64,000 bases of DNA from the IMG/VR virus record IMGVR_UViG_3300034019_002140; one strand, 5' to 3'. Below are positions 34,879-58,253 of this stretch, piece after piece (the first letter of the stretch is position 1; every line of letters begins with the position of its first letter). Made by a program: the position numbers and the translations under genes. The notes beneath the pieces were generated by a model. The model made no database searches. It was not told the DNA's origin and saw only the letters and a program-made list of their open reading frames with translations. The DNA is from a virus (taxonomy: Duplodnaviria; Heunggongvirae; Uroviricota; Caudoviricetes).

Positions 34879-37800
34879 ATGGGAAAAAATATTTTAATTG
34901 TTCCGAGTAATTTCACTGAGAGGACTGCTAACCGTACTCCATTTATAAGTTATGAGGGTACCACGGGTCAGGTTATTCTGACGGTTACACCTTCAGGTAA
35001 AATTAAATTCAGCGGTAATACTGTTGGTGATACAAATTTGATGACAGTAGACCCTGCAAATTCTACAGTTTCAGTAAACACTATTTTTGTAGGAAATTAC
35101 CTTGCAATAGGAGGGGTTCAGGTAATAAATGCCACAAACAATTGGATTGGACCCACAACAGGTATAGCTGGTTCTCAGGGTGCAAAAGGATTCAACGGAA
35201 ATACAGGTCCTACGGGTGCAATAGGTAACACAGGAGCACAAGGTGCTATTGGTGCTGCAGGCGCCACAGGACCTCAAGGTGCTCAAGGTACATTTGGGCC
35301 TAAGGGTGCTCAAGGAACTGCCGGAGCACAAGGAAATACGGGTGCTCAAGGTAACAATGGACCCAAGGGTGCCACAGGAGCACAAGGGTCAGCAGGTGCG
35401 CCAGGTAATACAGGTAACCCTGGACCTACAGGACAAAGTGGACACCCTGGTCCACAAGGACCAACGGGAGCCGTTGGTAATACAGGAGCACAGGGTGCGA
35501 TTGGGGTTACAGGACCCACAGGTAATACAGGTGCTCAAGGACCTGTAGGACCAACAGGTGGACAAGGTGCTCAAGGACCACAAGGAGCTCAAGGTCCAAA
35601 AGGATTTTCAGGTGCACAAGGTGCAACAGGAAACACAGGTGGAACAGGACCCACAGGAAATACAGGACATCCTGGCGCTCAGGGTGCTACAGGAAATCCT
35701 GGACCTACGGGTGTCACAGGGTCTCAAGGAGCCGTTGGACCCACCGGTGCTATAGGAGCTCAAGGACCCAAAGGAGCACAAGGGAATACTGGAAACACAG
35801 GGGCACAAGGAGCCACAGGAAATCCTGGTCCACAAGGTTTCACAGGTAATGTTGGTGCGGTAGGGCCCACAGGTGCGATTGGTCCAAAGGGACCACAAGG
35901 ACCTACAGGAAATACAGGTAATGTGGGACCACAAGGTGCCACAGGTACCACAGGCCCAACAGGTGATACAGGAGCTACAGGACCTGCAGGACCACAAGGT
36001 GCTGTGGGACCAAAAGGAGACACAGGTAATACGGGGGCTCAGGGTGCTGTGGGGCCACAAGGAGCAACTGGTCCGACAGGACTTTCAGGTGCTCAAGGTG
36101 CCCAAGGTGGGGTAGGACCGACAGGGGCTACAGGACCACAAGGAGCTCAAGGACCTGCGGGTAATACGGGTCATTCTGGTGCACAAGGTGCTACAGGACC
36201 AACAGGGCCTGGAGGTAACACAGGTGCTCAAGGGGCGGTTGGACCGAAAGGGGCTACAGGACCTCAGGGAGCTCAAGGACCCGCAGGTGGTACAGGTAAC
36301 ACAGGGGCTCAGGGTGCCACAGGACCACAAGGTTCGCAAGGGGCGGGTGGTGGAACAGGTCATCCAGGTGCCCAAGGTCCCCAAGGAGCGATAGGACCAC
36401 AAGGTTCACAAGGAGCCACAGGACACACTGGTGCTCAAGGCCCACAAGGTGCCACAGGACCACAAGGCTCACAAGGGGCTACAGGACATCCTGGTGCCCA
36501 AGGTAGTCAGGGTGCGGCCGGACCAAAAGGACCTAATGGATTCACAGGTCATCCTGGAGCGCAAGGACCGCAAGGTTCAGCGGGAGCAACGGGTGCTCAA
36601 GGTCAGACAGGTCATCCGGGGGCACAAGGTGCAGGTGGACCTACTGGGTCTCAAGGACAAGGGGGTGGTACAGGACATCCTGGAGCTCAAGGTGCCATAG
36701 GACCCAAAGGACCTCAAGGACCTACAGGTGCTACTGGCCATCCTGGTGCTCAAGGTGCTGGTGGAGGTACTGGTAACGAGGGGGCACCAGGTTTCACAGG
36801 ACATCCAGGTGCACAAGGTGCTACAGGACCAGGAGGTAGTCCGGGTGCTCAGGGTTCACAAGGTTCCCAAGGACCTCAAGGAGCTCAAGGAAATACCGGT
36901 CCGACCGGCGTACCGGGAGCTACGGGGCATCCTGGTGCTCAAGGAGCGGTCGGTCCAACTGGCCCACAAGGTCCGTCAGGTAATACAGGACATCCTGGTG
37001 CACAGGGAGCAACGGGTCCTACAGGACCTCAAGGAAATACAGGTGCCACGGGTGCTATTGGACCCCAAGGTGCGGGAGGTGCCACAGGCTCACAAGGGGC
37101 TGTAGGACCTCAAGGAGCAACTGGAGCCACAGGAGCCCAAGGTCCACAAGGTCCAGGTGGTCCTACAGGACCTGGCGGGGCACAAGGTGCTCAAGGAGGA
37201 GGAGGTGCCACAGGACCTCAAGGACCACAAGGTCCAAAGGGACCTCAGGGTGCTACAGGTCCTACAGGGGGTCCTGGTCCAACTGGACCACAAGGTCCTC
37301 AGGGACCAACAGGAGCACCTGGACCTACAGGTGCCACAGGACCACAAGGTCCTACAGGTGGTCAAGGTACACAAGGCTCATTAGGTGCAACAGGAGGGCA
37401 GGGTGCTCAAGGTTCCCAAGGAGCTGTTGGACCTGGAGGTGTAACATGTCAACTGAATAGTATTATTGCTCTTACAGGAAGTAGAAACCCATGTGTAGGT
37501 GTTTGTAATATCACTGTACCCAACGTTTATCCATACACTCAAACTGCTTACACAGCCACACAAAACAAATATTTCGATGCTACGAATTGTTCAAATGGTA
37601 CTTGTGATTGGAATACTTATAACTGGGAACAATGGAATAGTGCATGTTATTCATTAAACGCCACTTGTGGTAATGGTACCTATCAGCAGGCTTGTGCTTA
37701 TTCTGACGTGAAACTTAAAACAGGTATTGAAACCTTGAAAGATTCTCTTATAAAAATATTGGAAATAGAAACTGTTGAGTATGATTGGAACGAAAAAAAT

Positions 37801-38040
37801 TGGGGTACCAAAGAAGAGTATGAATATTTTGCTCAGATGGGAAGATTACATCAGATAGGTCTAATTGCACAAAACGTAAGAATTCATTTCCCTGAAGCTG
37901 TTGGAATCGGTCCTGATGGATATTATTACATTGACTACAAGAAATTAAATTCTGTTGTAGTTGAAGGTATAAAAGAACAACAAGTATTTATTGAAGAGAT
38001 AACTAAACAAGTAGACGAATTAGAAATTAAATTGAGATAA
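34879..38040 (+). CDS. Collagen-like fibre protein 1: N-terminal domain, ~800 aa of G-X-Y repeats, a Cys-rich knob, and a C-terminal peptidase-S74 intramolecular chaperone domain.
   Basis: Continuous G-X-Y triplets ([25 protein letters not shown]...). The C-terminus [12 protein letters not shown]...VEYDWN...IGLIAQNV...FPEAV...[20 protein letters not shown] matches the phage fibre intramolecular-chaperone domain. Confidence 0.8.
35140..37440 (+). repeat. Collagen-like G-X-Y triplet repeat array in fibre gene 1.
   Basis: 9-nt ggt-nnn-nnn periodicity over ~2.3 kb. Confidence 0.8.
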
Positions 38041-41024
38041 TGCCATCTAATGTAATTATATATCCTACCGGTAGAACGTGGAACACTGACCCTCATTTTA
38101 TTTTTGATGATGGAACTAATAAATTACAATTCAACGTTTTAACTGACGCAATAAGTCTGTCTGCTGGGTCAATTTCAAATAATTTTGTAATTGGTACAAA
38201 AGGTTCAGACAATGGTGTCACAACCTCAGGGGCTTCCGCACAGTCACTATATTTCAACGCCTCACAATTCATAGGTTCTGGAGGTGTTTGGGTCGGACCA
38301 ACTGCCGGTATCGCTGGTGCTCAGGGAGCTCAAGGTGCTCAGGGAGCCCAAGGTGGTCAGGGAGCTCAAGGAGCTCAAGGTGCAAATACAGGAGCTCAAG
38401 GTGCTACAGGTGCCCAAGGAGCAACAGGCGCACAAGGTGCGGCAAACACAACACAAGGTGCTCAAGGTACAATTGGGTCTCAAGGAGCTCAGGGTGCCAC
38501 AGGAGCTCAGGGTGGAAATACGGGTGCTCAAGGAGCCACAGGAGCTCAAGGTAACCAAGGAGCTCAAGGTGCTCAAGGAGGAACAGTTGGAGCTCAGGGT
38601 GCTCAGGGTGGTCAGGGAGCTCAAGGTGCTCAAGGTGCTCAAGGTGCAAACACAGGTGCTCAGGGTGCGACAGGTCCCCAAGGAGCCCAAGGAGCGGTAG
38701 GTGCTACAGGAGGAGTTCAAGGTGCTCAAGGTGCCGTCGGTGCCACAGGTGATTTAGGTGCTCAGGGAGCTCAAGGAGCCAATACCGGAGCCCAAGGTGC
38801 TCAAGGTGCACAGGGAACTCAAGGTGCACAAGGTGCTCAGGGAGGAAATACTGGTGCACAAGGTGCTCAGGGTACTCAGGGTACACAAGGTGCTACAGGT
38901 GCTCAAGGAGGAGTACAAGGTGCTCAAGGTGCTATAGGTACTACAGGACCACAAGGTGCTCAAGGGGCCCAAGGGGCAAACACAGGAGCTCAAGGTGCTC
39001 AAGGTGGTCAAGGTGCTCAAGGAGCTCAAGGTGCTCAAGGAGGAGTACAAGGTGCTCAAGGGGCTACAGGTCCTACGGGGGTACAAGGAGCACAAGGTGC
39101 ACAAGGAGGAGTACAAGGAGCACAAGGTGCAACAGGACCTCAAGGAGCTCAAGGGGCTCAGGGATTACAAGGTGGACTTCAAGGTGCCCAAGGTGCAACA
39201 GGTGCTCAAGGTGCACAAGGTTCTACAGGTGCTCAAGGAGGTACCCAAGGAGCTCAAGGTGCCACAGGACCACAAGGTGCACAAGGAGCAATAGGAGCTC
39301 AAGGAGGAGTACAAGGTGCTCAGGGTGCAACAGGAGCAGCGGGAGCTCAAGGTGCTCAAGGAGCCCAAGGTGCAAATACAGGTGCTCAAGGCGCCACAGG
39401 ACCTCAAGGTGCTCAGGGGGCGACAGGAGCCCAAGGGGGTGTACAAGGTGCTCAAGGCGCCACAGGTCCTCAAGGTGCTCAAGGTGCTCAGGGGGCTCAA
39501 GGTGCAAATACAGGAGCTCAGGGTGCTACAGGTCCTCAAGGTGCTCAAGGTGCTCAGGGAGCCCAGGGTGCCAGTCCAGGTGCTCAGGGCGCTCAAGGTC
39601 CAAAAGGACCTCAAGGTGCTCAAGGAGCCCAAGGTGGAAGTGCAGGTGCCACGGGTGCGCAAGGTGCAACAGGTCCTCAAGGAGCTCAAGGTGCCCAAAG
39701 TGGTATAACAGGACAGGCAGGAGCTCAGGGTGCTACAGGTCCCCAAGGGGCACAAGGTGCTCAAGGTGGAAGTGCCGGTGCTACAGGAGCAGTCGGTGCA
39801 CAAGGAGCTACAGGAGCACAAGGAGCCCAAGGTGCTAATCAAGGAGCACAAGGTGCTACGGGTGCTACAGGAGCTCAAGGTGCTCAAGGTGCTCAAGGTG
39901 CTAATCAAGGAGCCCAAGGTGCGACAGGTCCACAAGGTGCTCAGGGTTCACAGGGTGCACAAGGTGCTAATCAGGGAGCACAGGGGGCTCAAGGAGCTCA
40001 AGGTGCTCAAGGTTCTCAGGGAGCACAAGGAGCCAATCAGGGTGCACAAGGTGCTACAGGTCCACAAGGTGCACAAGGTGCAATTGGACCAAATAATACG
40101 ACACAAGGTGCTCAAGGTGCTCAGGGAGGTCAAGGTACTCAGGGAAGTCAAGGAGCACAGGGTGCTAACCAAGGCGCTCAAGGGGCACCTGGAGTTCAAG
40201 GAGCTCAAGGAGCACAAGGTGCACAGGGTGCTAATCAAGGGGCTCAGGGAGCACCTGGAGTTCAAGGTGCTCAAGGTGCTCAAGGTTCTCAAAGTGCTAC
40301 TTCGGGAGCACAAGGTTCTACAGGACCTCAAGGTGCTCAAGGTTCTACAGGACCCGGTCCTGGTCCGCAAGGAGCCCAAGGTCCACAAGGATTGACTGGA
40401 GGTGGAGGGAACACAGGTGCACAAGGGTCCCAAGGAGCTACAGGAGCCACGGGTCCTACAGGTGCTCCTGGTGGAACAGGAGCCACAGGTGCTCAAGGAG
40501 CCACAGGATTTGCTGGAAGTACTCAGGGTGCTCCAGGTGTACCAGGACCACAGGGGGCTCAAGGTCCGACAGGTGTTGGTGGTGCCACAGGCCCAACAGG
40601 CCCAACAGGTTTCAAGGGGAATACAGGCCCAACAGGCCCAACAGGTGCCACAGGTGCTCAGGGAGCACAAGGCGCTAAGTCAGATAAAAGATTAAAAGAT
40701 AATATAGTTGAATTCAAAGAACCTCTCACCCGTCTGAAACAAATCCAAGGTGTTAAATTTACTTGGGACCATGAACATCCTAAAATTAAATTTCATAAGC
40801 ACCTGAATGCTAAAGAAGCGTTCACAGGTGATACTTATGGATTCATAGCTCAAGATGTAGAAAAAGTATTTCCTGAGATTGTTGACACTGACCCAACTGA
40901 TGGATACAAATCTATGGATTATGGACTCTTGGTTAGTTTAGCCTTCGCATCAATTAAAGAGAATCAAAAAAGAATATTGTCAGTGAAAGATAGAATAAAT
41001 AGATTAAAACAAGTAGTGAACTAA
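38040..41024 (+). CDS. Collagen-like fibre protein 2 with a C-terminal S74 intramolecular chaperone domain.
   Basis: The ATG overlaps the upstream TAA (ATGA-type coupling). G-X-Y repeats are dominated by GAQ. The C-terminus is [32 protein letters not shown]...[15 protein letters not shown]...[18 protein letters not shown]. Confidence 0.8.
38290..40680 (+). repeat. Collagen-like G-X-Y triplet repeat array in fibre gene 2.
   Basis: ggtgctcaaggwgc units repeated. Confidence 0.8.
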
Positions 41025-44000
41025 TGGCATCATACGTAGTATATTCAGGGACGAGTTATCTAAATGCGTGTAATTCTGTGGCATCACAGACTATTTATAC
41101 ACCGTGTCCATCACTAAGTGGAGGTTGTGTAGTCTATACAGATGCAGGTTATACTAATGTTATTACTTTCTCTCCATTATTACCTAATTTATATCTAAAG
41201 GATTCTGTTGATACAACGGTTTGGAAGATAAATAGGACAGGAACTGTCACGGAGGTTAGAAAATGTACTGAATTTTCAGGTGATGAAAATATAATTGTTT
41301 ATCCTGATGGAGCCAATTTTCAACTTATAGATTCTGGAGGAACTGCCACTAACTGGTATATGGAGAATGGTGAGTTGAAATTTGGAACTTTAACTTCCAC
41401 TTTAGCAAGAATAAGTACTTCCTATCCAAACCTCAGAGTCAGTGGGGGGTCAATAACACTTACTAACAAACTTGCAAATGCCTCGGGAGATTTAATAAAT
41501 TCAACAGGATGGGTCGGAGCTAAATTACCTCAAGGTCCAACGGGTGCTCAAGGTTCACAAGGTTCTACTGGTGCTCAAGGAGCTCAAGGGGGTCAAGGAG
41601 CACAGGGTACCCAAGGTTCAACAGGTGCCCAAGGTTCTCAGGGTGCTCAAGGGGGACAAGGTGCTCAAGGTGCTCAAGGGTCACAAGGACCTACAGGTGC
41701 ACAAGGTTCACAAGGTGGTCAAGGTTCACAAGGCTCACAAGGTTTTACAGGTGCTCAGGGTTCACAAGGAGCTCAAGGAGGACAAGGTGCTCAGGGTTCA
41801 CAAGGAACTTTGGGACCCACAGGAGCTCAAGGTTCTCAAGGTGGTCAAGGAGCCCAAGGAGCCCAAGGTTCAACAGGTGCTCAAGGTTCGCAAGGAGCAC
41901 AGGGTGGACAGGGCGCTCAAGGTTCACAAGGGGCTAAAGGTCTCACAGGTGCTCAAGGGGCACAAGGTGGACAAGGTGCCCAAGGTGCTCAAGGTTCCCA
42001 AGGTACAACAGGAGCCCAAGGTTCCCAAGGGGGACAAGGTGCTCAAGGTGCTCAAGGCGCAGTTGGTCCTACAGGTGCTCAAGGAGCTCAGGGTGGACAA
42101 GGGGCTCAAGGAGCTCAAGGGGCTGTCGGTCTCACAGGAGCTCAAGGAGCTCAAGGTGGGCAAGGTGCTCAAGGAGCACAAGGGGCTCTCGGTCCTACAG
42201 GAGCTCAAGGTTCCCAAGGTGGACAGGGTGCTCAAGGAGCACAAGGTTCACAAGGTTTAACAGGTGCGCAAGGGTCCCAAGGTGGTCAAGGAGCTCAAGG
42301 AGCTCAGGGAGGACAAGGTGCTCAAGGTGCCCAAGGTCCTAAAGGTCCACAAGGTGCTCAAGGAGCCCAAGGTGCTCAAGGTTCAACAGGAGCCCAAGGT
42401 TCCCAAGGTGGAACAGGAGCCCAAGGTGCTCAAGGTTCAACAGGAGCCCAAGGTTCACAAGGTTCACAAGGTGGAACAGGAGCTCAAGGAGCCCAAGGTT
42501 CAACAGGAGCCCAAGGTGCTCAAGGTTCCCAAGGAGGACAAGGTGCCCAAGGGGCTCAAGGTACAACAGGTGCCCAAGGAGCTCAAGGAGCTACAGGAGG
42601 TCAAGGTGCTCAGGGTTCTCAAGGACCCACAGGAGCCCAAGGTTCTCAAGGTGCCGGAGGAGGACAAGGTGCACAAGGAGCTCAAGGTATAGTTGGAGCC
42701 CAAGGTGCTCAAGGTGGAGGTGGAGGACAGGGTGCACAAGGAGCACAAGGAACGACAGGTCCCGTAGGTGCACAAGGTTCACAAGGTGGGCAAGGTGCTC
42801 AAGGTTCCCAAGGTGCACAAGGTGCCACAGGAGCTCAAGGTTCTCAGGGCGTCGCCGGAGCTCAAGGTGCTCAAGGTGCTCAAGGAGCTGTTGGTAGTCA
42901 AGGTTCACAAGGAGGACAGGGTGCACAAGGAGCTCAAGGTTCACAAGGAGCTCAAGGTGCAACTGGTCCTGGTGGCGGACAAGGTGCTCAGGGAGCACAA
43001 GGAGCCACAGGTTCACAAGGTGCTCAAGGTGGAGGTGGTGGACAAGGTGCCCAAGGTGCTCAAGGGCCCGTCGGTTCACAAGGTTTTCAAGGAACAACTG
43101 GAGGTCAAGGTGCACAAGGTGCGCAAGGACCTACTGGACCTACAGGTATCACAGGACCTAAAGGGGGTCAAGGTGCACAAGGTGCTCAGGGAGGACAAGG
43201 TGCACAGGGACCACAAGGTCATATCGGTGCAAACGGTGCAACTGGTGTTCCTGGTCCTATTGGTCCCAAAGGACCTACGGGTCCTACGGGAGGTCAAGGT
43301 GCTCAAGGAGCTCAAGGACCTGGTGGTGCTCAAGGGGCTCAAGGTCCTACGGGAGGTCAAGGTGCTCAAGGAGCTCAAGGACCTGGTGGTGCTCAAGGGG
43401 CTCAAGGTCCTACGGGAGGTCAAGGTTCCCAAGGTGGAGGAGGAGCTCAAGGGGCTCAGGGTCCAACAGGACCTGGAGGTGCTCAAGGTGCTCAAGGAGC
43501 TCAAGGTCCCAAAGGTCCAATAGGTGGACAAGGTTCTCAAGGTCCCACAGGGGCTCAGGGTACCGCCGGAGGACAAGGTTCTCAAGGCGGTGGTGGTGCC
43601 CAAGGTGCTCAAGGTGCTCAAGGTCCGCAAGGAGGCCAAGGTGCTCAAGGCGGTGGTGGTGCCACAGGAGCTCAAGGACCTCAGGGGGGTCAAGGTGCCC
43701 AAGGACCACAAGGTGGTCAAGGTCCACAAGGTGCACAAGGTGCAACCGGTCCAAATGGTTTACAAGGTGCTCAAGGTGCACAAGGTACCACTGGTTCTGA
43801 CCTAAGATTAAAAAAGGACGTAAAAGAAATACAATCCCCACTAGAAAAAGTCCTGAAATTGAGAGGTGTTTCATTCTATTGGAATAAATTAAATGATGAA
43901 ACATCCCAATCAGGTAAACATGATATTGGATTCATTGCCCAAGAAATAGGTCATATATTACCTGAATTGGTTTTCAAGAAAAACACCGAGAACGCATATT

Positions 44001-44131
44001 TCATGGTAAAATATGCTGAAGTAATAGCTGTTTGTTTAGAAGCCATTAAAGAACAATCCTTGATTTTGGAATCTAAAGAAATAAAACTTGATGAGTTAGA
44101 GACAATAGCCAAGGAAAGAGGACTTATTTAG
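41024..44131 (+). CDS. Collagen-like fibre protein 3 with a longer N-terminal domain and a C-terminal S74 intramolecular chaperone domain.
   Basis: The ATG overlaps the upstream TAA. ~170-aa N-terminal domain, then G-X-Y repeats. The C-terminus is [31 protein letters not shown]...[16 protein letters not shown]...[15 protein letters not shown]. Confidence 0.8.
41535..43795 (+). repeat. Collagen-like G-X-Y triplet repeat array in fibre gene 3.
   Basis: ggtgctcaaggttcacaagg units repeated. Confidence 0.8.
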
Positions 44132-49812: not shown

Positions 49813-50514
49813 TTGAGTGGTATTTTGATTACTACGTTGCCTATTTTCTCTACAATGGAAACAAACAAGACAGATACGTGCAGTACATGCAAAAAAAGTG
49901 GGGAGATAGAAAATAATTATGGGCTGAATATTTCAGAGGAACACAAAACTTTTCTTTGGTTGTGGGCTAAAACCGGCACGTCCCATTTGAAACAAAATAT
50001 GAAATATTTTGGTTTCAATTTTTATATGTTCGATGGCGGTAAAAGAAGTTTTTTATCTAAAGGAATCACTCAGCAACACACTTGTCAATTATTTGAAGGG
50101 CACCATGATTATAAGATGTTAGCTACGGCTAGAAATCCCTACTCAAGATATGTTTCTTTCTATATAATGGCAAAAAAGGATGAAGCAACAATCGAAAATT
50201 TTGATGATTTTTTAGAAACACAAATATTTCATCATACAAATTTCGATTGTGTAACTTTTCACGATAGAATCCCTGATTATTTTGTTAGAGTTGAAAATTT
50301 GTTCGAGGACTATTCCAAAATTCCTTTCGTTGTTAAAAGTGATTATTATAAATCAGGACTTTTGGAAGAATTCTGTAATAAAAAAATAAATAAATCAAAG
50401 TTTGAAGTTGATTGGAAAGATTATTATAATCAATCAATGGCTGATTTAGTTTTTTATAACACTCAAAATTATTTTGAAATCTTAGGTTACGATAAAAATT
50501 CTTGGAAAAAATAA
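49813..50514 (+). CDS. Sulfotransferase-family protein (PAPS-dependent).
   Basis: 5'-PSB-like P-loop WLWAKTGTSHLKQ (cf. PKSGTTW). 3'-PB-like motif TARNPYSRYVSFY (cf. RNPKD..VSxY). The true start may be the Met at 49855. Confidence 0.5.
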   Translation: MSGILITTLPIFSTMETNKTDTCSTCKKSGEIENNYGLNISEEHKTFLWLWAKTGTSHLKQNMKYFGFNFYMFDGGKRSFLSKGITQQHTCQLFEGHHDYKMLATARNPYSRYVSFYIMAKKDEATIENFDDFLETQIFHHTNFDCVTFHDRIPDYFVRVENLFEDYSKIPFVVKSDYYKSGLLEEFCNKKINKSKFEVDWKDYYNQSMADLVFYNTQNYFEILGYDKNSWKK

Positions 50515-50520
50515 AAATAT

Positions 50521-50745
50521 ATGAATACTGAAATGGTCAATGGACCGATTCACTACGGTGGTGCGGATAATCCCTATGAGGTGATAAAAGTTTGTGAAGC
50601 GTGGGGTTTAGATAAGGACGCATATTTGTTCAATGTTGTAAAATATATTGCTCGTGCCGGTATCAAAGACCCCTCTAAAGAACTAGAAGACCTTAAAAAG
50701 GCTCAATTTTATTTAGATAGAAGAATTAAAAATTTGGAAAAATGA
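50521..50745 (+). CDS. Small hypothetical protein.
   Basis: ORF between the sulfotransferase and the APS kinase. Confidence 0.35.
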   Translation: MNTEMVNGPIHYGGADNPYEVIKVCEAWGLDKDAYLFNVVKYIARAGIKDPSKELEDLKKAQFYLDRRIKNLEK

Positions 50746-51182
50746 TTATTTGGCTAACAGGTCAACCTGGTTCGGGTAAAACAACTATCTGTGAACAGAT
50801 TATGTCTATTCACACAGAGTTTTTCCATGTTGATGGGGATGACCTAAGAGATTTATTTGACAATAAAGATTACTCTAAAACAGGTAGAAGAAAGAATATT
50901 GAACTTGCTCAACAAATATCTCAATATCTTCACAACCAGGGAGTTGATGTTTTAGTATCTTTAGTTTCCCCATATAAAGACCAAAGGGATAGGTTCAAGG
51001 AAAAGATGGGGGATGATTTGAGAGAAGTCTACGTTCATACATCAGAAAAAAGAGGTAGAGAACAATTCTTTGTTAAAGAATACAATGAACCAACAGAAAA
51101 CTATCTTGAGATTGATACAACCAATGAAAGTATAGTTGAGTCAGCAAAAAAAGTTTTAGATTATGCGAAAAATTCACGTTGA
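50742..51182 (+). CDS. cysC: Adenylylsulfate (APS) kinase, CysC-like.
   Basis: MIIWLTGQPGSGKTTI (cf. CysC VLWFTGLSGSGKSTV). HVDGDDLRD (cf. LDGDNVRHG). LVSLVSPYKDQRD (cf. AFISPHRAERQ). Confidence 0.7.
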   Translation: MIIWLTGQPGSGKTTICEQIMSIHTEFFHVDGDDLRDLFDNKDYSKTGRRKNIELAQQISQYLHNQGVDVLVSLVSPYKDQRDRFKEKMGDDLREVYVHTSEKRGREQFFVKEYNEPTENYLEIDTTNESIVESAKKVLDYAKNSR

Positions 51183-51564
51183 GGGTGACCCGAAATTAAA
51201 AAATACTGGAGGTAAGCAATATTCTATGTTTGTGGGACGGTTCCAACCATTTCACGGGGGACATCGATGGATTGTGGATGAATGTCTGAACGAAGGAAAA
51301 AATGTTTTAATTTGTATAAGAGATATTCAACCTGATGATAAAAATCCTTTTAGTGCTCAAGAAGTTGAATCCAATATCAAAAAAGAGTTGTGGAAATATT
51401 TGACCGACGAGAAAGTAAAAGTTATGATTATACCTGATATCGAATCTGTCAATTTTGGTAGAGGTGTTGGTTATGATATAATCGAACACATACCACCTCA
51501 AGAGGTTGGGGAGATATCTGCAACAAAAATTAGAGAAGAATTAAAAAAAGAAGGAAAATTATAA
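51163..51564 (+). CDS. HxGH-motif nucleotidyltransferase of the cytidylyltransferase/NMNAT-like superfamily.
   Basis: FVGRFQPFHGGHRWIV matches the archaeal-NMNAT/NadM-type GRFQPFHxGH signature. C-terminal ISATKIREEL matches the conserved (I/Y)S(G/T)T.IR motif. Confidence 0.5.
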   Translation: MRKIHVEGDPKLKNTGGKQYSMFVGRFQPFHGGHRWIVDECLNEGKNVLICIRDIQPDDKNPFSAQEVESNIKKELWKYLTDEKVKVMIIPDIESVNFGRGVGYDIIEHIPPQEVGEISATKIREELKKEGKL

Positions 51565-52418
51565 TGCAAACTAATAAGATATATCAAGGTGATTGTATTG
51601 AGGTTATGAAAACATTTCCCGAAAATTCAATTGACCTCATAGTAACATCTCCACCCTATGGTGTAGGAATCGATTATGACACTTTTGAAGACGACATCCC
51701 TTTTGAAGATTATAAATTGTTTTCAACAAACTGGATGACAGAAGCTTTCAGAGTGTTGAAGGAAGATGGGAGAATTGCTTTGAACATTCCATATGAAATA
51801 AATCGTCAGAGTCAGGGTGGAAGAATTTTCATGGCGTCTGAACTTTGGCGGATAATGCAGATAATTGGATTCAAGTTTTTCGGGATTGTTGACCTAAAAG
51901 AAAATTCTCCTCATAGGAGTAAAACCACCGCATGGGGTTCTTGGATGTCACCATCCGCACCGTACATTTACAACCCCAAGGAGTGTGTTATTTTGGCGTA
52001 CAAGAAAAACCACATAAAGAAAGTAAAAGGTCAACCAGAGTGGGTAGGAATCCCTGAGGAGGTCACCAACGAAGAGGGAAAGACCCGAACTAAAATGATG
52101 TATACTGAAGAACAGAAAAGAGAGTTCATGGATTTAGTTTACGGGGAGTGGGATTATTTTGCCGACACGAAACAATTGACAAAGGCAACATTTTCATTAG
52201 ATATTCCTTTAAAGGCAATAAAAATTTTAACTTATAAAAATGATTTGGTTCTTGACCCTTTTGCTGGTAGTGGAACAAGTTTGGTTGCTGCAGTTATTTC
52301 CGACCGTAATTGGATTGGTATCGAGCTTAGTGAAAACTACTGTGGAGTCGCTCAAAAACGAGTACAACATTTCATAGATAAAAAAAACCAACCTGAACTT
52401 GATTTTGAAAAGGGGTAA
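51564..52418 (+). CDS. DNA methyltransferase, beta-class (N6A or N4C).
   Basis: Catalytic motif IV LIVTSPPYG comes first. The AdoMet motif I VLDPFAGSGTSLVAA lies near the C-terminus. The permuted order indicates the beta class. Confidence 0.75.
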   Translation: MQTNKIYQGDCIEVMKTFPENSIDLIVTSPPYGVGIDYDTFEDDIPFEDYKLFSTNWMTEAFRVLKEDGRIALNIPYEINRQSQGGRIFMASELWRIMQIIGFKFFGIVDLKENSPHRSKTTAWGSWMSPSAPYIYNPKECVILAYKKNHIKKVKGQPEWVGIPEEVTNEEGKTRTKMMYTEEQKREFMDLVYGEWDYFADTKQLTKATFSLDIPLKAIKILTYKNDLVLDPFAGSGTSLVAAVISDRNWIGIELSENYCGVAQKRVQHFIDKKNQPELDFEKG

Positions 52419-52460
52419 TACCCCTTTTTTTCTTTTCAGTATATTTATAATTAAATTATT

Positions 52461-52835
52461 TTGATGACTGAAGAATTGATAAAGAAACTCGTTCAGATGC
52501 AACTTCAATGGAAGTTTTTACATTGGCAAACTTTTGGGGATGCTAAACACAGAGTTTATGGAGAAATTTACGATGGTTTAGGTGACCTGATTGATGAGTT
52601 TACTGAAACCATGATGGGAAAGTATGGTAGACCTAAGTTTGATGATGAGTTTGCTTTGATGTTTCAAGATATATCAAGTCTCAGTATTCAGAACTTTGTC
52701 GATGGAATAGTTGAATTTTTGGTTTCTATGTCTGAAGAATTGGACCCAAAATACGATACTGACTTGTTGAATATCAGAGATGAGATGCTCGGATTGATAA
52801 ATAAATCAAAATTCCTTTTAACACTTAAATACTAA
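52461..52835 (+). CDS. Hypothetical protein.
   Basis: ORF. Confidence 0.35.
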   Translation: MMTEELIKKLVQMQLQWKFLHWQTFGDAKHRVYGEIYDGLGDLIDEFTETMMGKYGRPKFDDEFALMFQDISSLSIQNFVDGIVEFLVSMSEELDPKYDTDLLNIRDEMLGLINKSKFLLTLKY

Positions 52836-53200
52836 TGAAGAAAATTGTCAGACTTACCGAAACAGATTTGGAAAGAATCGTAACAAGGGTTATAAATGAA
52901 CAAAATGAAACAAGAAGTTTCATTAGAGCAATACAAAGATTTTTAATTGATAAAAAAATTACCGGAGACAATAAAAAACCTCTAACCGTTGACGGTAGAA
53001 CTGATAATAATTTGACCTCTCAAACGGCACAGGCAATATCAAAATACCAATCTATGATAGGAGTTTATCCTGCGGATGGAGTTTGGGAAATAAATACTTG
53101 GGAGAAAATGCCGAAGGAAGACCAAAAAAAGTTAAAAAAACTGATGGCTGAAGAAGGTGACATTTTCGATAAATTCTTACATTGGATGGGTTGGGATTGA
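52835..53200 (+). CDS. Small protein with a possible peptidoglycan-binding-like helical domain.
   Basis: LTVDGRTDNNLTSQTAQAISKYQSMIGVYPADGVW resembles PG_binding_1 (DG.FG..T..AV..FQ...GL..DG). This is a weak match. Confidence 0.3.
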   Translation: MKKIVRLTETDLERIVTRVINEQNETRSFIRAIQRFLIDKKITGDNKKPLTVDGRTDNNLTSQTAQAISKYQSMIGVYPADGVWEINTWEKMPKEDQKKLKKLMAEEGDIFDKFLHWMGWD

Positions 53201-54594
53201 TGAAAAAAATTTTAAAAGAAACAGGTATAAGAGACATTTCGGCTTTGAGGAAGAGATATCCCAAAGCCGAAATTTATTTTCACCAAGACTTAGACGGTGT
53301 CACTACCGCTATAGCGATGAAAAAATATCTTGAGGACAATGGGATTGAAGTTGTTGGTGCACATATAATTCAATATGGTGACAAAGAGTTTGCTGTAAAA
53401 AAAAATGATGCCGAAGGTGACACGATGCCTGTGCTAGTCGATTTTGCTCACGGGAAGCCGATGTTTAAAATTCACACGGACCACCACGATAAACAAGTTG
53501 GTGCTGAAAAAGAAACATCCAAATCATTTAGACAAGCTCGTTCTAACGTTGAAACAATATCTCAAATTGTTTCACCTAAAGATTTATTTCCATCTTCAGA
53601 CATACGTCTGATAAGCACTGTTGATTCTGCAGATTTCGCTAGAAATGAAATTACTCCCGAGGATGTAATAAATTACATTTTTAGATTTGATAAAGAGAAA
53701 CCTCTACAAAAGAACAAAATGCTTTTGGGATTGGTTATAAATAAACTTATTTTAGCCTTCAAGAACAGACGTGGGTTTATGGAAAATCTTGTAATGGATT
53801 CTGAGCCATCTCTGCTTTCGATTCTCACGAACATAAGAAAGTGGATGAAAGAAACAGGGGCTGAACAACCCGAAAAATTACAATCCCATTCTCAAGATTA
53901 TTCACAAAGAATGAAATCTTATCATGGTTTGGAAGTAGATGGGAGTATTTTAACTCAGTACGGTGGTGGGGATATGAGGAAAGCAGGTTCCTATGACAGA
54001 TACACCCCTTTCAAGAACAATCCTGATGCGGATTTTTTGATTATGATTTGGCCTATGGGATTGTTACAAGTTTCGTGTAATCCATTCAAAAAAGATAGAG
54101 AACTCAAAGGTGTGAATCTCGGTGAAATTGCACAAGAGGTTTTATCAAAATGGAAAGATAAATTACAATCAAGGGTAATACCCTTATCAACAATCAAATG
54201 GATTAGTGAAACTTCGGTGAACCCTGAAAGTGTAGGTTTCACATTTAAAGATTTTGATGCTCTTTATGGTGGTAAAATTCAATATATGCAAGGTGGTAAA
54301 GAAATTTTGTCACAAATAAAGGAAATGATGAACAAACCTTTTGTTAAACTTACGGATGAAGAAAAAAATATTTTAGACAAATTAGGAATCAATGCTTGGG
54401 AACTACTTCAGTCCATGTCAGGTGGACATAAATGTATTACAAACATAAGTGGTTTAAATTATTTAGGTAGAAGTAAGAGACCGCCTCAAGGGAACTATAG
54501 ATGGGACCCTGAAAAGGAAGATGCTCCATACATTAAATTTCTTAAAATGTTAGCATCAGAATTCAAAAAAACATTGAAATCCAAAATTCACTAA
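53200..54594 (+). CDS. DHH-family phosphoesterase (NrnA-like), a candidate pAp phosphatase / nanoRNase.
   Basis: All four DHH motifs are present: I IYFHQDLDGV (HxDxDG), II VLVDFAHG, III IHTDHHDKQ (DHH), IV MSGGHKC (GGH). The ATG at 53200 overlaps the upstream TGA. Confidence 0.5.
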   Translation: MKKILKETGIRDISALRKRYPKAEIYFHQDLDGVTTAIAMKKYLEDNGIEVVGAHIIQYGDKEFAVKKNDAEGDTMPVLVDFAHGKPMFKIHTDHHDKQVGAEKETSKSFRQARSNVETISQIVSPKDLFPSSDIRLISTVDSADFARNEITPEDVINYIFRFDKEKPLQKNKMLLGLVINKLILAFKNRRGFMENLVMDSEPSLLSILTNIRKWMKETGAEQPEKLQSHSQDYSQRMKSYHGLEVDGSILTQYGGGDMRKAGSYDRYTPFKNNPDADFLIMIWPMGLLQVSCNPFKKDRELKGVNLGEIAQEVLSKWKDKLQSRVIPLSTIKWISETSVNPESVGFTFKDFDALYGGKIQYMQGGKEILSQIKEMMNKPFVKLTDEEKNILDKLGINAWELLQSMSGGHKCITNISGLNYLGRSKRPPQGNYRWDPEKEDAPYIKFLKMLASEFKKTLKSKIH

Positions 54595-54629
54595 AATGGT
54601 TAGAATTTCTGACTAAAATCTTCAAAAGA

Positions 54630-54980
54630 TTATCTTATTACATAATCCACCCTATCACCTTCATTGATATCTAAATCCCAACAGGTCCCACCCTGAACCT
54701 CGAACACAACATTTCCAGGACCACAATAAGACATACAATCATCCTCTTCACAAGGAGGACAATCGTGATGAATTTTTGTTATAATATTATCTTTGATTAT
54801 TATAATATCCAAATCAATAATACAATTTTTCATCCAAAAACATTGTTCCTTTCCACCCATAAGAAATAACAATCCCTGAAAATCATCATCAAATACTTTT
54901 CCCATCATCCCTTTCATTTGAGATTTTTTATCCAACAAAACCTTTGATTTAAATTCGTTATTTTTTATCTTTACAATCAT
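54630..54980 (-). CDS. Hypothetical Cys-rich protein on the minus strand.
   Basis: CPPCEEDDCMSYCGPG. Confidence 0.35.
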   Translation of the reverse strand: MIVKIKNNEFKSKVLLDKKSQMKGMMGKVFDDDFQGLLFLMGGKEQCFWMKNCIIDLDIIIIKDNIITKIHHDCPPCEEDDCMSYCGPGNVVFEVQGGTCWDLDINEGDRVDYVIR

Positions 54981-54994
54981 ATTTAATAAATACT

Positions 54995-55405
54995 ATGAAA
55001 AAAAGTTATGCGGGTGTAGTGGTAAAACACAAAAAGAAAATTTTATTTTGTAAAAGAAGTTCTAAAGTAGATTATCCAGGTGTTTGGTCAATTCCTGGAG
55101 GTACAATGGAGGAAGGCGAGTCTCCCATCCAAACAGCACGTAGAGAGTTTTTTGAAGAAATGGCTGTTGACATAGATAGTGAAACATTGAACAAAGTTGG
55201 TGTAATTCCAAGATATTCGAGAGACGGTAAGAAGTTGAAGGGTCAGATGCATGTCTTTGAGACAGAACCAATTGAAAAACTCATTCCTGATTTATCAATT
55301 GCGATTGACGGTGAAGAACATACTGAATGTGGTTATTATACTCTCGAAGAAATGCCACCTTCCAAAATTGGAGAGAACCTATACAATCTTTTAAAAAATA
55401 TGTGA
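54995..55405 (+). CDS. Nudix hydrolase.
   Basis: Nudix box GGTMEEGESPIQTARREFFEEMAV (Gx5Ex7REUxEExxU). Confidence 0.75.
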   Translation: MKKSYAGVVVKHKKKILFCKRSSKVDYPGVWSIPGGTMEEGESPIQTARREFFEEMAVDIDSETLNKVGVIPRYSRDGKKLKGQMHVFETEPIEKLIPDLSIAIDGEEHTECGYYTLEEMPPSKIGENLYNLLKNM

Positions 55406-55791: not shown

Positions 55792-55863
55792 GGCGAGCGG
55801 GAGGTAAGGTATCTCATTGGTCTCATAAGCCAATTGAACTTGGTTCAATTCCAAGGCGTCGCA
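55792..55863 (+). ncRNA. tRNA-like element (anticodon CAT, Met/Ile-like) with a non-canonical acceptor stem.
   Basis: D-arm GAGG-TAAGGTA-TCTC (A14, G18 G19, A21). Anticodon arm TTGGT-CUCAUAA-GCCAA. 5-nt variable loop. T-arm CTTGG-TTCAATT-CCAAG. The proposed acceptor strands GCGAGCG/GCGTCGC pair at only 4 of 7 positions, and an alternative 8-bp hairpin (AATTGAAC/GTTCAATT) competes with the T-arm. Confidence 0.2.
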
Positions 55864-56112: not shown

Positions 56113-57014
56113 TAAGACAATTGAGGGAAATCGTTTCCGAATGTTCGGAGTAAAGATATTTCGGTTTCCTTCAATCTTTGATAGTTCTTTGATTCAAGAT
56201 ATTGGCCGCCTATGGTCGTTAAATAAACTACGAAAGTAGTATAAAGTAGGAACCCCTGGTTTGGTGGTTCCCGCGGTTTCCAAAAGGGAGCTCGAGTAGG
56301 CAAGCAGGATATCACAACACCTTTAGTACCGAGGGTAACACTGTAGGGAACGTGGTGTGGTGACCAAGCGATTCGGGTCGTTTGGTTGAGGTCGGAAGAC
56401 CAACAAGAATCACCTGTAGAATCGATGTAAGAAGTGGTAGTATCCACTGTCACAATTGCGTCATTCAATATCAAAGTTGACTTAAAAACCGAAAGGTAAG
56501 TTTTATTACAGGTGGTGCTGATAGAACCTTAGCAAATGCTCTACCAAGAGGTCTGTTATGAAGTTGACTCGAAGTATGGAGGTGGGGACACTTCAGAGGG
56601 TAGTTTAGTATCGGGTCGTTCAAAAGATGACTTGGCTTCAGACGGGCCACTACCTTCATAATCCGTAAACCAACTTTGGTCTATGCAATGTCCAAAACAT
56701 TAATTAAATCAAGGAAAAGTGCTCGTCAGTTGTGTGTGACAGGTCACTACATAGTAATGAGATGTTCATTGCCGTGAAGGGTCCCAAGCCCGACACGATT
56801 TTCACGAAAGTTCTCTAATCCCGCAAGGATGAATTGGCTCGGCAGGGTCGAAGAGTGATGAGTAATGGGAGAGTTGCAGACAACTTCAGGATTGGTTAAT
56901 CTAATTGACCGTGACTGAGAGTTACTTCTCAAAAGGAAGTGGAAACAGAGGGAACCAAATAATCCTCCTAAAGACTCTTGTCAAGACTTGTATTCTCAGA
57001 GTTTTCGCCTAACC

Positions 57015-57046
57015 CTGACCGTCTCTACGGTTGGGGTTTTTTATTT
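57015..57046 (+). terminator. Rho-independent terminator closing the + strand ncRNA locus.
   Basis: GACCGTCTCTACGGTT stem-loop followed by GGGGTTTTTTATTT. Confidence 0.55.
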
Positions 57047-58253
57047 AACAAGGGTATGGTCCTGAAACAACCGTAACAGCACCAATAGTAACTGTATATC
57101 CACTTCCATCCGTACATATGGTGAGCTGTCCACTAAATGTTTGTGTAAAATAACTACCACCACAATCGAACCATTCTATTGATGCACTTCCACCACCAGC
57201 ATCCAATACATAACCAACACACGTAGAAGGTGTTATTGATGGAGTTGGAGTTACTGTCGGTGTTTCGGCTGGAGTACCTGTATTTGTTGGAGTGACGGGT
57301 GGAGTCGTTGGCGGAGTAGCGGTATTTGTAGGTGTCGTAGTATTTGTTGGGGTCACTGTGGGAGTTGTAGTATTAGTGGGAGTTACCGAAGGTGTAGGTC
57401 CAATCGTTGGGGTAACAGAAGGAGTTTGAGTTTGTGTTGCGGTGACTGACGGGGTTGGTGTAGATGTTCTAGTCGGGGTTGGAGTTGCGGTTGCTTGGCT
57501 TGTAGGAGTTGGTGTCGGAATGTTTGCATTTGTAAGTTCACAAAGACTAATTCTTACACCGCCATATTGTATACTTGGTGGAGATGAAAATGTTATTTCT
57601 GTGAAAGGGGAAGTTGATTGAACTAAAAATCTTGCTAATCCATCAGTATTTACCGCTGTGATTGTACCGTTGTTGATATTGAAATTACAACCTGTACATT
57701 GAGTTATTATTGGAGTTTGAGAATTGTTTAAAGTTATGGTAACTCTATCTCCATTCGGGAAAGCATCACCATTCCAAACACCTGAATTGAACATCAATGA
57801 TGAGATGGCTTGACTAAATCTAAAAGTAACAGTTGCACCTGACCCGAAAGACACGACACCAGTTCCTGGTCCAGGTTTTATTGTAATTGGGATTTCTTGA
57901 CAAGAGTAGTTGTTTGGACCATAGGTAAATGTATTAGTTGAACATACTGAGTTAAAAGTATAACCAGTTATTTGTATACCATTACTTGTTACCACTTGAC
58001 CATTACAAGGGGTATTTATTACATTACATGTAGGACAATTATTCAAATCCCTTTGAAACCATTCTTCACTAATTACTAAAGAATTTTCGTAGAAATTACT
58101 TAAAGAGAAGGTATCGTAAATTGCCCAAACATTTTTTGTTTGATTTGGTAAGAGTGGGACTTGGTTTTCAAATTCGCTTGAATCACATTTTCTATAACTA
58201 AATGTTACAAGAGTGTTACCCGTGTTGGTTAGAGTATATTTTTTACAATTCAC
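57045..58253 (-). CDS. PT-linker modular Cys-rich structural/adhesin-like protein. Its C-terminal domain is paralogous to the C-terminus of gene 3518..5623.
   Basis: Long linker PTPTPTSQATATPTPTRTSTPTPSVTATQTQTPSVTPT.... C-terminal SIEWFDCGGSYFTQTFSGQLTICTDGSGYTVTIG. Confidence 0.55.
   Translation of the reverse strand: MNCKKYTLTNTGNTLVTFSYRKCDSSEFENQVPLLPNQTKNVWAIYDTFSLSNFYENSLVISEEWFQRDLNNCPTCNVINTPCNGQVVTSNGIQITGYTFNSVCSTNTFTYGPNNYSCQEIPITIKPGPGTGVVSFGSGATVTFRFSQAISSLMFNSGVWNGDAFPNGDRVTITLNNSQTPIITQCTGCNFNINNGTITAVNTDGLARFLVQSTSPFTEITFSSPPSIQYGGVRISLCELTNANIPTPTPTSQATATPTPTRTSTPTPSVTATQTQTPSVTPTIGPTPSVTPTNTTTPTVTPTNTTTPTNTATPPTTPPVTPTNTGTPAETPTVTPTPSITPSTCVGYVLDAGGGSASIEWFDCGGSYFTQTFSGQLTICTDGSGYTVTIGAVTVVSGPYPC

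Follow-up and report, generated by a model that had tools for sequence, protein, structure and literature searches.

A jumbo phage locus that places an accessory, predicted sulfotransferase gene beside a core pair of APS kinase and nucleotidyltransferase genes

We examined a gene cluster at positions 49813–55405 of a 64,000-nucleotide stretch of viral DNA (IMG/VR record IMGVR_UViG_3300034019_002140, Caudoviricetes), which we refer to as the window. The window is part of a ∼320-kb jumbo phage from environmental metagenomes, and related IMG/VR viral contigs reach 321 kb. An original prediction, made from the sequence alone, had read five genes of the cluster as a self-contained sulfation module. 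In that module an adenosine 5′-phosphosulfate (APS) kinase makes 3′-phosphoadenosine 5′-phosphosulfate (PAPS) to serve as donor of sulfate, a sulfotransferase spends it, and a DHH phosphoesterase removes the by-product adenosine 3′,5′-bisphosphate (pAp), with an HxGH nucleotidyltransferase (NTase) and a Nudix hydrolase as the remaining members. All five genes are open reading frames (ORFs) on the plus strand and contain every motif that had been quoted for them. Sulfation backed by phage-made PAPS is well supported by the analysis described here, and the closed five-gene pathway is partly supported. The best overall explanation, which we consider probable, is that PAPS made by the phage through the kinase and its coupled NTase serves the adjacent accessory sulfotransferase, and that the DHH protein may clear the pAp that results.

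The interval contains ten ORFs, nine of them on the plus strand (Table 1). From the sulfotransferase through DUF3310, the kinase and the NTase to the methyltransferase, successive genes are separated by +6, −4, −20 and −1 nt, so that the DUF3310 stop overlaps the kinase start and the NTase gene overlaps the kinase gene by 20 nt. Given this tight packing, the sulfotransferase and the kinase probably share one transcript. The five-gene run ends at a terminator-like hairpin and the DHH block lies beyond it, which suggests, on the basis of a consensus scan, that the cluster probably comprises at least two transcription units together with one gene on the opposite strand. The DNA methyltransferase does lie amid the cluster as had been noted, but so do four more interleaved genes, namely DUF3310, DUF5856, the PG-binding-like ORF and DUF192. 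DUF3310 is matched by PHROG families labelled ‘nucleotide kinase’ and is 80–89% identical in relatives. The methyltransferase is a bystander within the tightly packed run. In a PADLOC scan only this type II methyltransferase and a generic Nudix were matched, and the cluster therefore shows no link to a defence system.

Table 1. Genes and features of the sulfation locus, in window coordinates
Feature	Position	Strand	Basis
Sulfotransferase-like protein	49855–50514 (alternative TTG start 49813)	+	Fold model, bridging homologues
DUF3310 small protein, core gene	50521–50745	+	Pfam DUF3310 E 1.3e-12
Short-lid APS kinase, CysC type	50742–51182	+	Pfam APS_kinase E 1.3e-17, 64.7 bits vs cut-off 21.1
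Minimal HxGH NTase	51163–51564	+	CTP_transf_like E 5.4e-7
N6/N4 DNA methyltransferase	51564–52418	+	Pfam N6_N4_Mtase E 6.5e-32; PADLOC type II MTase E 7.5e-54
Terminator-like hairpin	52407–52429	+	10-bp G+C-containing stem, then T-run; consensus match only
DUF5856 protein	52461–52835	+	Pfam
PG-binding-like ORF, weak match	52835–53200	+	Pfam
Divergent DHH/DHHA1 phosphoesterase, core gene	53182–54594	+	Pfam DHH E 1.1e-3, under cut-off
DUF192 protein	54630–54980	−	Pfam
MutT-like Nudix hydrolase, core gene	54995–55405	+	Pfam NUDIX E 5.7e-18

The kinase, a protein of 146 aa, carries the motifs WLTGQPGSGKTT, DGDDLR and SPYKDQRD. Its score against Pfam APS_kinase (PF01583) is far above the 21.8 bits obtained with AAA_33/polynucleotide kinase (PNK), and every significant match in the Protein Data Bank (PDB) is an APS kinase, the best being 2YVU (E 1e-10). 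The cut-off of the NCBIfam equivalog TIGR00455 is missed (69.9 versus 138.7). Individual residues were mapped by alignment with Escherichia coli CysC and by the spacing from the DGD motif onto Mycobacterium tuberculosis CysC. The P-loop (G7–T14), D31-G32-D33, R36, Y44, R49 and S76-P77 are all present, and D33, R36, Y44, R49 and S76-P77 correspond to Asp480, Arg483, Phe492, Arg497 and Ser524 of the M. tuberculosis enzyme, which hold the ribose, phosphosulfate and adenine of APS (PMC4373884). The lid is 14 residues shorter than that of E. coli CysC, and this short lid, together with the NCBIfam score below cut-off, at first made the substrate of the kinase uncertain.

The cellular relatives of the kinase bear directly on this point. 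One genome per bacterial or archaeal species was scanned with a 9-sequence kinase profile, a 23-sequence alignment being too diverse for the purpose, and this returned 80 bacterial loci with kinase homologues, mostly 41–52% identical to the phage protein. At 46 of the 80 loci cysD and cysN lie directly beside the kinase gene, with median identities to their E. coli counterparts of 47% and 50%, respectively; most of these loci belong to Flavobacteriales or other Bacteroidota, and the contigs that carry them are as long as 575 kb. In Verrucomicrobia, the kinase gene adjoins Sulfotransfer_2/3-like genes with classical sulfotransferase motifs. Motifs of the Sat type (RNPxHxxH, GRDHAG) were found at none of the 80 loci. 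The cysDN-linked Bacteroidota homologues align over the same ∼140 residues, with no room for a 14-residue insert, and the short lid is thus a trait of the subfamily and not a defect. The cysDN operons and sulfotransferase neighbours, which go with homologues 42–52% identical to the phage kinase, indicate that the short-lid form is a genuine cellular APS kinase subfamily which includes the phage gene. Thus, the assignment of this protein as a CysC-like APS kinase holds at the level of profile and PDB similarity and of bacterial genomic context, with the activity itself being predicted. Short APS-kinase domains also occur fused to other enzymes in metagenomic proteins (P0176, P0196 and P0268), where the partner is either a HAD phosphatase, in an architecture like that of T4 Pnkp, or an FkbM-type methyltransferase. 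The HAD phosphatase fused to the short kinase could be an alternative pAp 3′-phosphatase.

The sulfotransferase-like protein contains the motifs AKTGTS and RNPYSRYVSFY within 49813–50514. Most homologues begin at the ATG at 49855, which is therefore the likely start in preference to the TTG at 49813. No match was obtained in Pfam, PHROGs, NCBIfam or PDB sequences, even when the protein was used as a 44-sequence profile, nor among 50,697 deposited phage genomes. We collected 52 environmental homologues; the family was found only on environmental phage contigs, with at most 52 clusters in either search. In the 44-homologue alignment H89, R107, N108 and P109 show no variation and K53 and S115 reach at least 90% conservation, and the conservation of K53, R107, S115 and H89 was seen again in a broadened set of 25 members. 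The 5′-phosphosulfate-binding loop reads W-A-K53-T-G-T-S, with K or R at the K53 position in most divergent paralogues, and H89, invariant in both alignments, is the putative catalytic base. Judged by sequence, this is the pattern expected of the 5′-phosphosulfate loop, the 3′-phosphate motif (R107...S115) and the catalytic base of PAPS sulfotransferases.

The fold gives the same picture. An AlphaFold (AF2) model built from the homologue alignment (predicted local distance difference test, pLDDT, 86.3) has the sulfotransferase α/β fold, and nearly all Foldseek matches of this model in the PDB are sulfotransferases, with weak E-values. When the profile was broadened with divergent paralogues, matches to Sulfotransfer_2 (PF03567) were recovered above its cut-off of 22 for P0340 (28.1 bits), P0337 (23.8 bits) and the L047 paralogue (27.6 bits); in five further members PF03567 was among the weak sub-threshold matches, and was the top match in four. 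On account of the members above cut-off, we file the window protein as a divergent Sulfotransfer_2 type, a family made up mostly of carbohydrate PAPS-dependent sulfotransferases. The placing of this protein in the sulfotransferase family by the original prediction is thus borne out by structure, by bridging homologues and by intact PAPS-binding motifs, and sulfotransferase activity is predicted.

Some other phage lineages carry two or three sulfotransferase paralogues, which have TylF-like methyltransferases, HAD phosphatases or a GT17 glycosyltransferase as neighbours. At L041 (9404–12723) and L118/L119, three tandem paralogues are accompanied by two Methyltransf_24/TylF-like methyltransferases and a CxxCxxCC protein, and this arrangement resembles a glycan or small-molecule tailoring cluster. 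A radical SAM/SPASM protein was also called in L118. An AAA_33 kinase encoded downstream of the L008 paralogue was considered as independent support and rejected, as it has only the P-loop in common with the APS-kinase family.

The NTase carries the motifs GRFQPFHGGH and ISATKIR. Searched as a profile against the PDB, it matches archaeal/NadM nicotinamide mononucleotide adenylyltransferase (NMNAT) best (1F9A, E 1.1e-10; 4YP7, E 3.2e-10), with PPAT following at ∼0.04. No ATP sulfurylase was present among the matches up to E = 10, which were confined to NMNAT, PPAT, NadR and RibF. Neither GRDHAG nor QxRNPxHxxH occurs in the protein, and all that it has in common with Sat is the HxGH superfamily signature. 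Compared with the NMNAT MJ0541, ∼33 residues between the DIE motif and GYEV are reduced to 8 (SVNFGRGV), and an invariant GR-VGY motif stands in place of the missing segment, which we take to be nicotinamide-riboside-binding. The NCBIfam NMNAT score is 41.5, against a cut-off of 127.

In the DHH protein, the motifs HQDLDG, VDFAH, TDHHD, VDSADF and SGGH are all found. H34-x-D36-x-D38, D87, D100-H101-H102, D148 and G414-G415-H416 are invariant in 12 sequences, down to huge-phage homologues of 23% identity. The window protein itself does not reach the PF01368 cut-off (19.7 versus 28.1 bits), and Pfam DHH is matched by 12 of the 12 aligned members (best E 1.3e-6). Neither the single sequence nor the profile matched any PDB sequence, and the best structural match of a model of the protein (pLDDT 62.5) is an archaeal PAP phosphatase, MtPAPP of Methanothermococcus thermolithotrophicus (PDB 8A8K). 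The MtPAPP gene lies in the same genomic neighbourhood as genes for ATP sulfurylase and APS kinase (PMC10322725), which provides a precedent for the idea that the phage protein removes pAp. Thus, all four DHH motifs that had been reported, and the DHHA1 GGH in addition, are intact, whereas the NrnA-like pAp phosphatase role proposed on their basis is only suggested by the model; the protein is possibly a pAp phosphatase or a nanoRNase. Four homologues (P0056, P0110, P0112 and P0166) have C-terminal extensions of ∼250 aa, assigned to PF25218 in P0056 and P0112 and to a GNAT acetyltransferase in P0166.

The Nudix box is intact in the last ORF of the interval (PF00293, 65.7 bits versus 21.1). The best NCBIfam and PDB matches are to generic MutT/Nudix proteins, with no specific subfamily being reached, and the inclusion of this gene in a sulfation module is not upheld, as nothing in the matches of this generic MutT-like protein links it to sulfation.

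To see how these genes are inherited, related loci were gathered with three seeds (sulfotransferase, kinase and NTase) and gene presence was scored for each locus. The NTase-seeded viral scan supplied co-occurrence counts, and all of its loci came from this one phage family. All kinase-seeded loci contain the kinase, the NTase and the methyltransferase, together with DUF3310, DUF5856, DHH and Nudix wherever the sequence reaches far enough. The core genes are mostly 70–90% identical to the window copies, the Nudix gene ∼50%. Among relatives the sulfotransferase reaches only 35–50% identity; it is an accessory gene that occupies a variable slot beside the core block.

The explanation that we prefer can be set out as follows. 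The conserved phage backbone encodes a short-lid CysC-type APS kinase, translationally coupled to the minimal HxGH NTase, and this coupling suggests that the phage makes, or at least completes, PAPS itself. In this phage the variable slot immediately upstream of the core block holds the accessory sulfotransferase, which would spend the PAPS to sulfate a candidate acceptor, most likely a glycan. The core DHH/DHHA1 phosphoesterase, 2 kb downstream, may then remove the by-product pAp. The Nudix, methyltransferase, DUF3310, DUF5856 and DUF192 proteins are best treated as neighbours and not as demonstrated parts of the pathway. Two findings speak for a functional link between the neighbouring sulfotransferase and kinase genes. 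Firstly, the short kinase is linked to sulfotransferases independently in bacteria. Secondly, another phage lineage (L044) encodes a stand-alone HAD protein ∼1 kb away from a sulfotransferase paralogue, and this protein shows 41% identity (E 2e-27) to the P0176 HAD domain that is joined to a short APS kinase. We conclude that the sulfotransferase and the APS kinase plausibly work together. Folds, family assignments, conserved catalytic and ligand-binding residues, gene order and co-occurrence are observed here; the enzyme activities, a common transcript, the acceptor and what the NTase and DHH proteins do are predictions.

A number of observations weigh against this explanation. Among the 48 kinase-seeded loci that include the upstream anchor gene, a full-length sulfotransferase occupies the adjacent slot in eight (it is present in 5 of 32 NTase-seeded loci). 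A 32-codon 5′ stub alone is found in a further seven, and the slot is empty in 33, of which four have a diverged paralogue ∼9 kb downstream. As the sulfotransferase is facultative, the kinase, NTase, DHH and Nudix genes must have a role that is independent of it. In other phage lineages the sulfotransferase homologues lack an APS kinase within 10 kb, and the scanned ORFs of the window yielded neither an ATP sulfurylase (cysD/N or sat) nor cysH nor a sulfatase. For pAp removal, the DHH model is of low confidence and RecJ-type proteins score only slightly below its best match (9.1 and lower), so that the protein does not group with RecJ by a small difference in such a model; the DHH family is also far more widespread than the sulfotransferase. 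The self-contained module of the original prediction is accordingly not sustained: the five genes are not co-inherited, the sulfotransferase being accessory and the others core, and the hairpin splits the cluster. The stubs lie between the upstream gene and DUF3310 in ∼320-kb relatives (L058–L060, L062, L064, L065 at 9317–9412, L072 at 9687–9779). They encode a non-catalytic leader, which could be what is left after deletion of the catalytic part or could have a separate function.

A more far-reaching possibility, which we put forward tentatively, is that the kinase–NTase pair is a complete miniature PAPS synthase. The 110–130-aa HxGH enzyme would then be an NMNAT-derived ATP sulfurylase whose reaction is pulled by the kinase, and host sulfate activation would not be needed. 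The fusion of APS kinase to ATP sulfurylase is the classical arrangement of known PAPS synthases, and the pair is bound together in a similar manner. Of 59 NTase-seeded phage loci, 58 have the kinase immediately upstream of the NTase. The genes overlap in this phage as well as in Marinimicrobia, and fusions of the two occur in at least eight proteins from unrelated phages and bacteria (they were seen in phrog_10255, Xylella phage Salvo gp32, Stenotrophomonas phage DLP_6 AAY80_227, P0191, P0219, P0242, L158, L177 and L189). In bacteria, the short kinase has either cysD/N or the NTase beside it, never both: the NTase is beside or fused to the kinase at 12 of the 80 loci, none of them with cysD/N, and at 0 of the 46 cysDN loci (Fisher p = 5.9e-6, for kinase-adjacent genes and not corrected for phylogeny). 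The phage NTase is 62% identical to a Fidelibacterota copy, and in Marinimicrobia/Fidelibacterota the pair is found among polysaccharide-export-like ORFs with a sulfotransferase-like gene. This exclusivity and context would be expected if the NTase replaces CysDN in forming APS, although they are not proof of it. The loss of the ∼33 NMNAT residues after the DIE motif and the invariant GR-VGY also count in favour of this possibility.

Against the miniature synthase, the NTase profile reaches no ATP sulfurylase within the E-value range given above, we know of no 110-aa ATP sulfurylase, and the ATP sulfurylase reaction is very unfavourable. The exclusivity towards cysDN/sat covers kinase-adjacent loci and not whole genomes, the NTase could make another activated precursor, and the cultured phages with fusions, Salvo and DLP_6, have no recognised sulfotransferase. 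The original prediction had allowed the HxGH enzyme either to adenylylate sulfate or to act in NAD salvage. Its sequence, being NMNAT-like and without similarity to ATP sulfurylase, does not speak for the former, but the genomic context does, and the evidence favours a minimal sulfurylase over NAD salvage.

Some further features of the pair were noted. The overlapping kinase–NTase pair of Marinimicrobia/Fidelibacterota is seen on SAR406-type chromosomes (L176 5989–6757, L174, L161, L169 and L184), where the neighbours resemble, by eye from their N-terminal sequences, polysaccharide-synthesis/export genes (WecB-, Wza-, Wzz- and flippase-like). A 237-aa ‘WSGPRNIST’ protein is encoded near the pair at four of the five Marinimicrobia loci, and the one that was searched gave only two PDB matches, both weak and both to sulfotransferase domains. 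The fusions of the cultured phages (L110 6578–7324, Salvo gp32; L111 4590–5321, DLP_6 AAY80_227) are annotated merely as ‘kinase’ or ‘hypothetical protein’, and 3.5 kb upstream of gp32 in Salvo there is a gene with a cysteine dioxygenase annotation.

It is rather unlikely, in our view, that the kinase serves the phage simply as a cysC auxiliary metabolic gene which boosts assimilatory sulfate reduction in the infected host for cysteine and methionine, with an unrelated accessory sulfotransferase having arrived in a variable slot and using whatever PAPS there is. Such a role would fit the presence of the kinase in the core with or without the sulfotransferase, and the nearest cellular homologues are indeed in cysDN assimilation operons of Bacteroidota. 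In addition, large phages are reported to carry cysC commonly as an auxiliary gene (PMC13172472), and a 144-aa ‘adenylylsulfate kinase’ is annotated in the jumbo phage RsoM2USA (PMC8504454). However, the obligate NTase partner would be left unexplained, neither cysH nor sulfite reductase was found among the scanned window ORFs, the short kinase lies beside sulfotransferases independently in Verrucomicrobia and Marinimicrobia, and the sulfotransferase and kinase genes of the phage are tightly packed.

A role in nucleotide housekeeping or nucleic-acid end-processing is very improbable. The kinase would be PNK-like, DUF3310 a kinase domain like that of T7 gp1.7, the DHH protein a nanoRNase or RecJ-like and the Nudix protein MutT-like, with the sulfotransferase adjacent by chance. 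The T4 Pnkp-like fusions of some short-kinase relatives to HAD phosphatases, the ‘nucleotide kinase’ PHROGs matched by DUF3310, the RecJ-type proteins among the matches of the DHH model and the location of the Salvo and DLP_6 fusions among DNA-metabolism genes could all be read in this way, but the APS_kinase score far above that for AAA_33/PNK, the conserved APS-contact arginines and the homologues in cysDN operons and beside sulfotransferases argue against it. Least likely of all is a split NadM-Nudix for NAD salvage (NMNAT plus ADP-ribose pyrophosphatase, with a nicotinamide-riboside-kinase-like kinase), since, although NMNAT and NadM-Nudix proteins are the top sequence matches of the NTase and NadM-Nudix fusions are encoded by T4-like phages, the NTase lacks the ∼33 NMNAT residues and falls far below the NCBIfam cut-off, no Nampt or PRPP synthetase was found among the scanned window ORFs, the Nudix protein is MutT-like and its gene is 3.4 kb distant, past a terminator-like site and a gene on the opposite strand, and genomic context marks the kinase as an APS kinase.

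Elsewhere in the window, the products include collagen-like tail-fibre proteins, a primase, an SbcC-like protein, a sigma factor, DnaJ and a Dam methylase. Three consecutive ORFs of ∼1000 aa at 34879–44131 (+) have 48–55% G+C, compared with ∼32% for the genome, and match collagen-like tail-fibre PHROGs with E-values down to 5e-149. Most of the closest cellular relatives of the kinase (49–52% identical) belong to Flavobacteriales, Chitinophagaceae or other Bacteroidota, and there is no evident Shine-Dalgarno-like sequence upstream of the sulfotransferase start; taken with the 32% G+C, this is a weak hint of a Bacteroidota host. Past the Nudix gene, an ORF-poor stretch contains a full-length GOLLD RNA (Rfam RF02032) at 56596–57002 (+), with 314.7 bits against a cut-off of 150 (E 3e-89). 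It is preceded by a tRNA-like element at 55793–55863 (+), a weak 33-bit match at which ARAGORN calls no tRNA, and followed by a terminator-like hairpin at 57011–57038. GOLLD is found at the same position in six of seven related jumbo-phage loci (313–335 bits), with a good tRNA (53–64 bits) upstream in five. Next comes a 402-aa protein (57045–58253, −) that has a long Pro/Thr-rich linker and Cys-rich ends and no Pfam match; the original prediction had named it as a candidate target of sulfation.

Sulfation in bacteriophages is essentially unstudied, and this locus offers a concrete case with a sulfotransferase, an APS kinase and a candidate by-product phosphatase. The acceptor might be a glycoprotein of the virion, a glycan of the host envelope or a metabolite. 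The short-lid APS kinase has relevance beyond phages, as it is the cysDN-linked kinase of many Bacteroidota. If the kinase–NTase pair does function as proposed, it would, whether encoded by overlapping genes or as a fusion of ∼250 aa, be the smallest known PAPS synthase, and the NTase would represent a new minimal class of ATP sulfurylase. The pair would then stand in for CysDN in many phages and, among bacteria, in Marinimicrobia/Fidelibacterota and some Verrucomicrobia and Bacteroidota. Phages that bear it, among them cultured phages of Xylella, Xanthomonas and Stenotrophomonas whose copy carries the plain annotation ‘kinase’, could by themselves make PAPS from sulfate and ATP, and the annotation of sulfate activation would change in SAR406/Marinimicrobia, Verrucomicrobia and many phage genomes.

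The individual enzymes can be compared with known systems. Like the CysC proteins of M. tuberculosis (4BZQ) and Aeropyrum pernix (2YVU), the phage kinase has Walker A, (L/V)DGD, the two arginines that bind the phosphosulfate, the first of the stacking aromatic residues and the SP motif; it differs in having neither the N-terminal extension nor the lid segment that bears the second stacking Phe (PMC4373884). The window sulfotransferase family differs from Sulfotransfer_2 (PF03567), to which the window protein itself gives no match, in being small (core ∼190 aa) and soluble and in having a characteristic C-terminal YDKNSWKK motif. The DHH protein has 470 aa, including a helical insert of ∼90 residues, compared with 317 aa for MtPAPP, with which it has no sequence similarity in common, and the structural match rests on the pLDDT 62.5 model. 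Its gene occurs irrespective of the sulfotransferase, and also in huge phages without the kinase in the 6 kb flank examined.

In known bifunctional PAPS synthases an APS kinase is joined to the enzyme that forms APS (metazoan PAPSS, where the APS kinase is N-terminal and the ATP sulfurylase C-terminal; fungal/Aquifex Sat-CysC; CysN-CysC). The phage pair likewise consists of a kinase followed by an NTase of the HxGH superfamily, either fused or overlapping. In contrast, its second domain is only 110–130 aa long and NMNAT-like, with no detectable similarity to Sat or CysD, and its activity is that of a candidate. Our literature searches returned no description of a kinase–NTase PAPS synthase or of sulfation genes in this phage family. 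Phage-borne sulfation genes as such are less unusual than the original prediction had supposed: Sulfotransfer_3 genes of cyanophage S-SRM01 and of OM43 phages have been reported as auxiliary genes of unclear function (PMC10580990), and cysC, as mentioned above, is known from large phages (PMC13172472). In these cases, as here, sulfotransferases or APS kinases are phage-encoded. Here, by contrast, a different and unclassified sulfotransferase family lies directly beside the kinase and its coupled NTase, a combination that is not described in those two reports or in the other literature on phage sulfation genes that was searched. What is new, therefore, is the unclassified sulfotransferase family, its juxtaposition with a phage APS kinase, and the kinase–NTase pair as a candidate compact PAPS synthase.

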